From the NCBI GenBank assembly GCA_947626335.1, contig CANQRY010000002.1:3759-67758 (forward strand): a stretch of 64,000 nt of DNA. The letters run 5' to 3'. Position 1 is the stretch's first letter; every line of letters begins with the position of its first letter. Origin of the DNA: an uncultured Clostridia bacterium (GTDB lineage Bacteria; Bacillota; Clostridia; TANB77; CAG-508). The notes beneath the pieces were generated by a model. It saw only the letters and a program-made list of their open reading frames with translations, was not told where the DNA came from and did not search any database. Below, piece after piece: positions 24,418 to 24,785 of this stretch. Both the position numbers and the translations under genes were made by a program.

Positions 24418-24446
24418 TTGACTTTTGTTAAAATTTACCATATAAT
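24418..24446 (+). promoter_or_regulatory. sigma-A-type promoter (TTGACT-17-TATAAT) for the small toxin-like transcript
   Basis: ttgact tttgttaaaatttacca tataat. Confidence 0.55.
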
Positions 24447-24481
24447 AAATTTCAGAAGTTAGGAAAAGCAGAGTGTGGTTG

Positions 24482-24502
24482 CCTCCTTTTACATAAAGGA
24501 GG
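24482..24502 (+). promoter_or_regulatory. hairpin sequestering the Shine-Dalgarno of the small ORF
   Basis: cctccttt (24482-24489) pairs perfectly with aaaggagg (24495-24502). The GGAGG lies inside the 3' arm. Confidence 0.5.
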
Positions 24503-24510
24503 TGATGTCT

Positions 24511-24621
24511 ATGGTAGAATATTATATTACTATTATTTACTTACTACTTTGTGCCTTTTTTGGCATAACTATCATAACATTAACTCTTATTATTACATTA
24601 ATAATAATATTGAGTAAATAA
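24511..24621 (+). CDS. candidate type I toxin: 36 aa hydrophobic peptide
   Basis: Own translation: MVEYYITIIYLLLCAFFGITIITLTLIITLIIILSK. GGAGG lies 8 nt upstream. It is below the ORF-track cutoff. Confidence 0.45.
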   Translation: MVEYYITIIYLLLCAFFGITIITLTLIITLIIILSK

Positions 24622-24705
24622 AAACAACAATAGCACATTCTGCTTGGCAGGGGAATGTGCTACTAATTAAACCCTGGCAACCACACTTTGTGGTTCCTAA
24701 TTTCT
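24622..24705 (-). ncRNA. candidate antisense antitoxin sRNA overlapping the toxin 3' UTR (ends approximate)
   Basis: A minus-strand promoter TTGACA-16-TATAAT (24712-24739) is followed by the hairpin aaccaca/tgtggtt. A 10-bp terminator stem (24631-24662) is then followed on the minus strand by ttgttgttttt. Confidence 0.35.
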
Positions 24706-24785
24706 ATTATTATTATAACATACTTTTTAAAAATGTCAAATTTAACCATAAAATTTCCCAAAATATAAAAATAAAAGAGGTGCAA

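Follow-up and report, generated by a model that had tools for sequence, protein, structure and literature searches.

We analyze a stretch of 64,000 nucleotides (hereafter "the window"; 28% GC) from contig CANQRY010000002.1 of an uncultured gut Clostridia bacterium, and in it a cassette of about 345 bp (24397-24739) that lies in the gap between hydA and era. By Pfam, the upstream flank is the large subunit of an [FeFe]-hydrogenase of the hydA type (22636-24390) and the downstream flank is Era (24786-25691), which is followed by YqzL-like and RecO genes. Along its plus strand, the cassette holds a LexA-like dyad, a promoter, a leader in which the Shine-Dalgarno (SD) sequence is buried, a hydrophobic open reading frame (ORF) of 36 codons and a 3' untranslated region (3' UTR) toward which a promoter on the opposite strand points. 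We are confident that this is a real sense/antisense small-peptide module, and we hold it probable, with less assurance, that it is a bona fide type I toxin-antitoxin (TA) pair with a previously undescribed toxin family. An earlier sequence-only reading of this DNA had proposed the same architecture (hydrophobic ORF, structured mRNA, sequestered SD, convergent antisense RNA against the 3' UTR); it is upheld by all of our in silico tests and is conserved in seven other species. That reading had also remarked that no annotated ORF covers the module, and a second public assembly, 100% identical over the region, likewise has no called gene in its hydA-era gap.

Our comparative set comes from an era-anchored scan with one genome per species, which gave 80 loci, all from metagenome-assembled genomes (MAGs) of uncultured Clostridia from animal and human guts. 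The closest ~29 species share the gene order hydA-era-recO. The complete cassette, with both promoters, both arms of the long-range helix described below and the ORF, is kept in seven species-level MAGs of the same clade, and together with the window these make up the eight cassettes to which we refer throughout. Identity to the window is 87% for L025, ~80% for L027, L011 and L009, 74% for L019 and L022, and 70% for L014. The arms and both promoters are 80-92% identical, versus 61-71% for the third codon positions of era, so these elements are more conserved than neutral sites.

The ORF occupies 24511-24621 on the plus strand, from an ATG at 24511, 8 nt past the GGAGG, to a TAA that ends at 24621, and encodes the peptide MVEYYITIIYLLLCAFFGITIITLTLIITLIIILSK. 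It is as hydrophobic as had been claimed, with a grand average of hydropathy of 2.1 and with E3 and K36 as its sole charged residues, separated by 32 uncharged ones. The ORF is conserved in all seven homologues (example peptides are MVDYYITIIYILLSALIGVTTLTLALIIALVVILSK and MVDILLQLIILLFSALVAVSIIAIALIIALTIIISK), and in the homologue alignment all other reading frames are interrupted by stops. Codon positions 1, 2 and 3 have 24, 7 and 23 variable columns, respectively, out of 35 each (chi-square p = 3e-5); this near-frozen second position is the pattern expected under selection for hydrophobicity, in which NTN codons are retained. These observations support the view that the ORF evolves like a coding sequence for a transmembrane peptide. 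A longer, 48-residue form starting from a GTG at 24475 was considered and rejected, as the extension meets a stop codon in L019, L022 and L014.

The sense promoter, TTGACT-17-TATAAT (24418-24446, plus strand), matches the consensus at 11 of 12 positions and stands where the sequence-only reading had placed it; its -35 hexamer, its 17-nt spacer and a -10 of the form TA[TCA]AAT are kept in all eight cassettes. Promoter matches alone prove nothing, because they are about as common in shuffled sequence of 28% GC: sites with at least 11 of 12 matches number 10 in the window versus 7.7 in shuffles. With a start placed 7-8 nt past the -10, the predicted toxin mRNA would begin with AGAAGUUAGGAA and span ~255 nt (24454-24708, plus strand), its 3' end being uncertain. 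A predicted mRNA of 260 nt folds at -96.5 kcal/mol versus -48.7 +/- 4.3 for shuffles (z = -11), and per-sequence folds give the same closed structure in 8/8 cassettes.

What closes this structure is a long-range helix between the first nucleotides of the transcript and its 3' UTR. The 5' arm, AGAAGTTAGGAAAAGCAGAGTGTGGTTGCC (24454-24483, plus strand), and the 3' arm (24676-24705, plus strand) form an inverted repeat with a duplex energy of -45.2 kcal/mol, and the 3' arm is at the same time the template of the 5' end of the antisense RNA. The earlier reading had reported a perfect 12-nt complement between 24472-24483 and 24676-24687; the perfect match stands, and the true extent of the complementarity is 30 nt rather than 12, with 83% of positions complementary and, when G-U pairs are counted, a helix of 12 + 16 bp. 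The ends of the arms coincide with the predicted +1 positions of the sense and antisense transcripts alike. Across species the 5' arm is nearly invariant (TTAGGAA.AGC.GAGTGTGGTTGCC, with 95% of cells paired), and in all eight cassettes the 3' arm is fixed as GGCAACCACA.TTTGTG..T.CTAA.TTCTA.

Above this helix, an anti-SD segment CCTCCTTT, the loop TACAT and the SD segment AAAGGAGG form a perfect 8-bp hairpin (24482-24502, plus strand; -10.2 kcal/mol), which hides the GGAGG as the earlier reading had described. In L019, L022 and L014 the hairpin is retained with a different sequence, CCATCTCA...TGAGGTGG. Opening the region from the SD to the AUG costs 7.6-13.5 kcal/mol across the eight cassettes, and an SD that is closed in all states fits the very low translatability reported for bsrG. 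At the other end of the transcript, the local hairpin at 24679-24695, also anticipated by that reading, lies within the 3' arm and is the sole terminator-like site on the plus strand; it is a weak one.

A further complementarity in the leader is worth recording on its own. The segment AAGCAGAGTGTG (24466-24477) can also pair with CACATTCTGCTT (24634-24645), which lies in the antisense terminator hairpin; the GCAGAG/CTCTGC core of this match is kept in homologues while the rest of the stem drifts, and the pairing appears as the predicted alternative fold in a 3'-truncated mRNA. It may serve as a second long-range contact or as a loop recognition site.

On the minus strand, the convergent promoter that had been proposed at 24739-24712 is indeed present, as TTGACA-16-TG-n-TATAAT (24712-24739), with 12/12 consensus matches and, in addition, the TG of an extended -10. 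Its hexamers and 16-nt spacer are kept in 8/8 cassettes. From an inferred start at A24705, 7 nt past the -10, it would produce an antisense (putative antitoxin) RNA of ~85 nt (24620-24705, minus strand) that begins with AGAAAUUAGGAA and folds into two hairpins at -28.9 kcal/mol (z = -3.9). The RNA would end at an intrinsic terminator (24619-24662, minus strand) made of a 10-13-bp stem at 24631-24662 (hairpin energy -16.8 kcal/mol) and the run UUGUUGUUUUUA; the 10-bp stem and U-run of the earlier reading are both there, and a U-rich run follows the stem only on the minus strand. As the alignment of this hairpin is unreliable, we relied on per-sequence folds. The region is only 46-58% identical to the window, yet every homologue has an 11-16-bp hairpin immediately after the stop codon. 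The predicted antisense RNA is the complement of the toxin's 3' UTR and, ending at ~24620, at the stop codon, leaves the ORF uncovered.

The energetics suggest what such an RNA would do. The perfect duplex between the antisense RNA and the 3' UTR is worth -161 kcal/mol versus -45 for the intramolecular helix, so the 5' arm should be displaced. In silico blocking of the 3' UTR lengthens the SD hairpin of the window from 6 to 9-12 bp and makes the SD-AUG region harder to open, by 2.9 kcal/mol for the window sequence and, at most, 4.5 for L025; L011, L019 and L014 show no change in this cost. Lengthening of the SD helix on antitoxin binding, as in bsrG, is weakened as a general explanation by this range (+0 to +4.5 kcal/mol) and is only partly supported. 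The leader of the toxin mRNA is itself a same-sense copy of the 5' end of the antisense RNA (50/66 positions identical, promoters included), so the two would compete for the 3' arm and would not pair with each other.

One locus outside the eight cassettes carries something similar to the antisense half. In L062, a more distantly related species whose Era is 58% identical, a hairpin, GGCAACCACGTTTGTGG and an inward promoter at 5330-5456 (minus strand) resemble that half of the cassette; the element is located downstream of recO, and no intact hydrophobic ORF was seen alongside it.

The duplication of promoter plus leader at the two ends of the cassette (24418-24483 and 24676-24739) amounts to a 66-nt imperfect inverted repeat with 50/66 identical positions, and it raises the question of whether the region is a decaying mobile element, akin to a miniature inverted-repeat transposable element (MITE), or a chance assembly of AT-rich promoter motifs and an inverted repeat, in either case without expressed products. 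The frequency of promoter-like sites, as high in the window as in shuffles, would agree with chance, and a presence that varies among relatives, with one copy at a second site, would agree with mobility. But filled and empty sites show no target-site duplication, the window contains no paralogue, and neither three scans of viral contigs nor searches of plasmids and phages returned a relevant cassette match. A match to both arms in a metagenome locus (L081) was rejected on reading as a high-GC chance match, and the larger era-recO spacers of L010, L026, L027 and L029 contain no second cassette. Furthermore, the internal ORF is under purifying selection for hydrophobicity, the functional elements are conserved above neutral, and the terminator hairpin drifts in sequence while its structure stays. 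With neither target-site duplication nor dispersed copies found, the MITE reading is not supported, and we regard this whole class of explanation as the least probable of those considered here, with very little chance of being correct.

The distribution of the cassette among relatives bears on a second explanation, that the region serves era-yqzL-recO as a cis-regulatory leader or attenuator, or hydA as a structured 3' UTR, the ORF being a leader peptide or meaningless. The cassette does sit directly upstream of era with no strong plus-strand terminator, the window genome has no convincing separate era promoter, and in one remnant (L023) only the LexA-like box and the promoter are left, fused directly to the ribosome-binding site of era. 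Against this, in six relatives era follows hydA after a spacer of only 23 nt, a clean empty site with no such leader, and in L014 the cassette (3913-4262) is located downstream of era, between era and recO, while its hydA-era site is empty (23 nt). A leader would also not call for a conserved peptide with a frozen second codon position or for a conserved convergent consensus promoter and terminator. We therefore find this explanation very unlikely.

Three other relatives hold remnants: L006 retains only the hairpin, the 3' arm and the antisense promoter with a mutated -10, and in L015 and L017 nothing remains but the upstream box, the promoter and the initial ~25 nt of the leader. The ORF is absent from 4/4 remnants, L023 included. 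In L014, a 1-nt deletion has replaced the C-terminus of the peptide and extended the ORF to 61 residues through the hairpin, and this copy suggests that the unit can relocate and then decay. Taken together, the empty sites, the relocated copy and the remnants indicate that the cassette can be dispensed with, that it has changed position at least once and that its decay proceeds through deletions in which the ORF is lost. Such patchy presence, absence and decay is typical TA cassette behaviour.

Seven loci without the cassette (L001, L002, L003, L005, L007, L008 and L016, at about 2880-3000) carry another conserved element between hydA and era, GTCAAGYAAAATTAGTAGAAAAAAA ... TTGACAAAATTCTACAAAA ... 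TAGTAGTAYAAT, which is also found in the right part of L006, L015 and L017. Judged by its sequence, the element resembles a promoter for era combined with a partly palindromic operator (TAGTAGAA/TTCTACAA). It is missing from the window genome, where era may therefore depend on read-through from the cassette or from hydA.

Upstream of the sense promoter, 9 nt before its -35, lies the LexA-like dyad GAACAAATGTTT (GAAC-N4-GTTT; 24397-24408). It is the only match to RAACNNNNGTTY in the 64 kb, where 4.6 would be expected, and it is identical at 12/12 positions to the C. difficile recA operator. An oligonucleotide of that operator served to show LexA binding, and the clostridial LexA motif is GAAC-N4-GTT[CT] (PMC4234289). 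An operator motif of the Gram-positive LexA regulon is thereby present at the toxin promoter, and no LexA-like box is found ahead of the antisense promoter. The AAC/GTT arms are kept in all eight cassettes and in the remnants L015, L017 and L023 (11 loci); the distance to the -35 is 9 nt, or 11 nt in L019, and the spacer of the dyad varies in L009 and L017. The conserved dyad suggests control of the toxin promoter by the SOS response.

We searched for known relatives of both products. Pfam gave no match at E <= 1 for the window peptide or two homologues, in a run in which the positive controls were assigned as they should be (Fst and PepA1 to Fst_toxin, TxpA and BsrG to Hol_Tox, Hok to HOK_GEF). 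Specifically, the peptide matched neither the TxpA/BsrG profile Hol_Tox (PF16935; controls TxpA E 2e-7, BsrG 2e-8), nor the Fst/Ldr and SprA1 profile Fst_toxin (PF13955; Fst and PepA1 controls matched), nor Hok/Gef (PF01848; Hok control 1e-21). An NCBIfam scan of the peptide found no match. A word-indexed search of 5.8 billion protein clusters with the 48-residue GTG-extended form as query and an exhaustive phmmer search of 1.84 billion representatives with the peptide found no relative, in libraries where very small proteins are possibly under-represented; a phmmer match to a repetitive, hydrophobic protein of 432 residues was rejected as no relative. Exact look-up showed neither the 36- nor the 48-residue product to be recorded, and a profile search of the PDB returned only a sub-threshold likeness to FXYD transmembrane helices. 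For the RNAs, Rfam gave 0 matches over the whole window at gathering thresholds and only noise (E > 1) in a permissive scan of 23800-25300; none of its type I antitoxin families (RatA, Sok, the RNAII/Fst antitoxin, SprA1as and others) reached its gathering score. A match to the Listeria small RNA rli28 at 24436-24604, which spans the promoter, the leader and the front half of the ORF, scored 24.8 bits (E 1.4) where the gathering score is 45, and we dismissed it as noise. Because the peptide is no homologue of TxpA/BsrG, Fst or Hok, the term "type I TA-like" describes a mechanism here and not membership of a family. Measured by generic features of type I systems, the locus has a conserved hydrophobic transmembrane ORF of fewer than 60 residues, an antisense RNA gene whose product pairs in silico with the toxin mRNA, and the sequestered SD and 5'-3' long-distance interaction that T1TAdb uses as descriptors (PMC8594479); a charged or bulky C-terminal cluster is not found.

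The closest mechanistic parallel is bsrG/SR4 of the B. subtilis SPbeta prophage, closer than the sequence-only reading had realised when it drew the comparison, in that there, too, the antitoxin binds the 3' arm of a helix enclosing the ORF (PMC3834814). The ORF of bsrG mRNA is enclosed by a long helix, P1, formed between nt 1-35 and nt 232-262, with the SD in a short stem at its top; on binding to the 3' arm of this helix, SR4 releases the 5' end, lets the SD helix grow from 4 to 8 bp and triggers cleavage by RNase III (PMC3834814; PMC6562991). Both loci share convergent genes, an antisense RNA complementary to the 3' part of the toxin mRNA and targeting the 3' arm, a long 5'-3' helix that closes the toxin mRNA with an SD stem at its top, and a hydrophobic toxin, of ~38 residues in BsrG. 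There are differences as well. The antisense RNA here is ~85 nt long and stops at the stop codon, whereas SR4 is longer and the antisense RNAs of the TxpA/BsrG family overlap the 3' part of the ORF in T1TAdb (PMC8594479), a layout that we do not find. In bsrG, the terminator is located outside P1; in our cassette, the SD hairpin already has 6-8 bp, and its tightening by the antisense RNA is inconsistent among homologues. Finally, the present cassette is chromosomal, between housekeeping genes rather than in a prophage, and has a LexA-like box.

The only Gram-positive families whose antisense RNA spares the ORF, according to T1TAdb, are Fst/RNAII (par of pAD1) and SprA1/SprA1as, and these act at the 5' region (PMC8594479). 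They resemble our cassette in an antisense overlap confined to the 3' UTR and in an SD held in a stem, but their functional pairing takes place outside the overlap, at the 5' translation-initiation region, through repeats or a trans-acting domain; no such pairing with the toxin 5' region is found here. As modelled, an ORF-sparing antisense RNA acting at the 3' arm would be a small architectural difference from both the BsrG and the Fst/SprA1 groups. With hok/Sok and aapA1/IsoA1, the cassette shares a long-distance 5'-3' interaction by which the full-length toxin mRNA is kept locked (PMC8594479). The hok and aapA1 mRNAs are activated by 3' processing and their antisense RNAs work at the 5' region, whereas the target of the antisense RNA here is the 3' partner itself. 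The C. difficile type I systems (CD0956.2-RCd10, CD2517.1-RCd8 and others) are likewise from Clostridia, with convergent overlapping genes and with toxins that were formerly unannotated and lack homology to other families; their toxin mRNA is stable and their antitoxin unstable (PMC6563280). Unlike the present cassette, they have toxins with a lysine-rich, charged C-terminus, lie in prophages or next to CRISPR arrays and use SigB-dependent promoters. Neither a lysine-rich C-terminus nor similarity of the CD0956.2 type was found in our peptide, and no C. difficile type I toxin was among its matches in the 5.8-billion and 1.84-billion protein searches.

In its placement of the LexA-like box, the cassette recalls a different set of systems. 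In a 2025 review, the SOS-induced type I systems known so far are all from E. coli, and LexA controls only their toxin gene (PMC11951105). In tisB/istR-1, dinQ/agrB, symE/symR and hokE/sokE, as in our cassette, the operator is found at the toxin promoter only, the antitoxin has a constitutive sigma-70-type promoter (PMC11951105) and the toxin is a small membrane peptide. These systems are Gram-negative, however, with CTGT-N8-ACAG boxes and no sequence relationship to the cassette, whose LexA control is proposed from the motif alone. IstR-1 and AgrB differ further, as divergent RNAs without overlap whose site of action is the 5' region or a standby site (PMC8594479).

Our interpretation is that the cassette most likely represents a toxin and antitoxin family that is new but belongs to a well-known kind of system, with bsrG/SR4 as its nearest mechanistic relative. 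A sigma-A-type promoter behind a LexA-type operator would give rise to the ~255-nt mRNA for a single-helix membrane peptide, and this mRNA would close on itself as its first 30 nt pair with the 3' UTR. With the SD buried in a hairpin stacked on the long-range helix, the mRNA should be stable and poorly translated. On the opposite strand, the consensus extended -10 promoter would supply the ~85-nt RNA, which matches the 3' UTR, 3' arm included, with perfect complementarity. As in the analogous systems bsrG/SR4 and txpA/RatA, the resulting duplex would displace the 5' arm and create a substrate for RNase III. Loss of the protective 3' structure would then lead to decay of the mRNA, and in some homologues the SD hairpin would also lengthen. 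Following this analogy, destabilisation of the mRNA through the duplex and RNase III would be the primary mode of control and translational tightening a secondary, uncertain one. On DNA damage, cleavage of LexA would raise toxin transcription above the level of the antitoxin. The sequence features, their conservation, the coding signature and the thermodynamics are seen directly, and the two transcripts, the toxicity of the peptide, the RNase III step and the LexA control are the inferred parts of this scheme.

Several observations weigh against parts of it. No double compensatory change is seen in the long-range helix, in which 18 of 26 pairs are constant, 6 vary on one side only, and the varying pairs show single-side G-U/A-U/G-C changes only. 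Covariation had to be rejected as support, the arms being too conserved, and the case for the helix consists of conservation and energy. The SD is sequestered in every modelled state, and the models leave translation of the peptide unexplained; tightening of the SD by the antisense RNA occurs in only about half of the homologues. Since the plus-strand terminator is weak, the sense transcript may run on into era. The peptide ends in K or KK only and lacks the charged C-terminal cluster of many type I toxins, a feature that is typical of them and not universal (PMC6563280). With respect to LexA, 7/8 intact copies (8/11 with the remnants) have AAAC and not GAAC as the first half-site, and the box does not cover the core promoter but is located upstream of the -35, so repression by LexA is not assured. 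As judged from the motif, functional LexA control is quite possible, although we stop short of expecting it.

Some of these points would suit an alternative in which the cassette is a conserved small membrane-protein gene under cis-antisense control and not a TA system, for instance a DNA-damage-induced membrane modulator that does not inhibit growth. It is equally consistent with the ORF, the antisense gene and the structure of the RNA, and it would fit the lack of a charged cluster at the peptide's C-terminus, an SD so tightly closed in all states and the absence of homology to any known toxin in the searches run. On the other hand, the combination of an extremely hydrophobic peptide of ~36 residues with a panhandle mRNA, a sequestered SD and a strong, constitutive promoter for the antisense RNA is the recurrent signature of type I TA loci (PMC8594479, PMC3834814); moreover, the ORF has been lost from every remnant, and the cassette is dispensable and patchy among close relatives. 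We thus consider the non-toxin alternative unlikely, yet by far the most serious of the three rivals. Returning to the type I TA reading, its most far-reaching form would make the cassette a type I TA family under SOS (LexA) control, the first in a Gram-positive lineage, with a leader that is an inverted duplicate of the antitoxin 5' end and acts as a built-in competitor setting the DNA-damage threshold for a membrane-active peptide, all in a small unit, mobile or dispensable, that uncultured gut Clostridia carry. We offer this only tentatively and doubt that it will hold in full.

Two neighbouring genes deserve mention apart from the cassette. In the era-recO interval, a 55-residue ORF (25807-25974) belongs by Pfam to the YqzL-like family (PF14006, E 1.8e-6). 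Upstream of hydA, a gene for a NuoF/HydB-like flavoprotein (region 20678-22538) is split into two overlapping ORFs, 20678-21367 and 21330-22538, with positions 1-41 of the Pfam domain Complex1_51K in the first and positions 42-149 in the other. Near 21345-21352 (GACCCTCGGAGC), an additional base resembles a +1 frameshift in the hydCBA operon; an assembly error or a pseudogene is possible.

Type I TA loci are almost invisible to annotation pipelines, and in Clostridia, to our knowledge, they are known experimentally only from C. difficile. The cassette adds a well-delimited candidate family from uncultured animal-gut Clostridia, for which eight natural variants map the constrained nucleotides, and a unit of ~345 bp could serve Clostridia as an orthogonal RNA regulatory device or as a counter-selection marker. 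TisB and DinQ have been linked to persistence after exposure to DNA-damaging antibiotics. If the LexA box of the cassette is functional, SOS-induced membrane-peptide toxins would reach beyond the enterobacteria to Gram-positive anaerobes.

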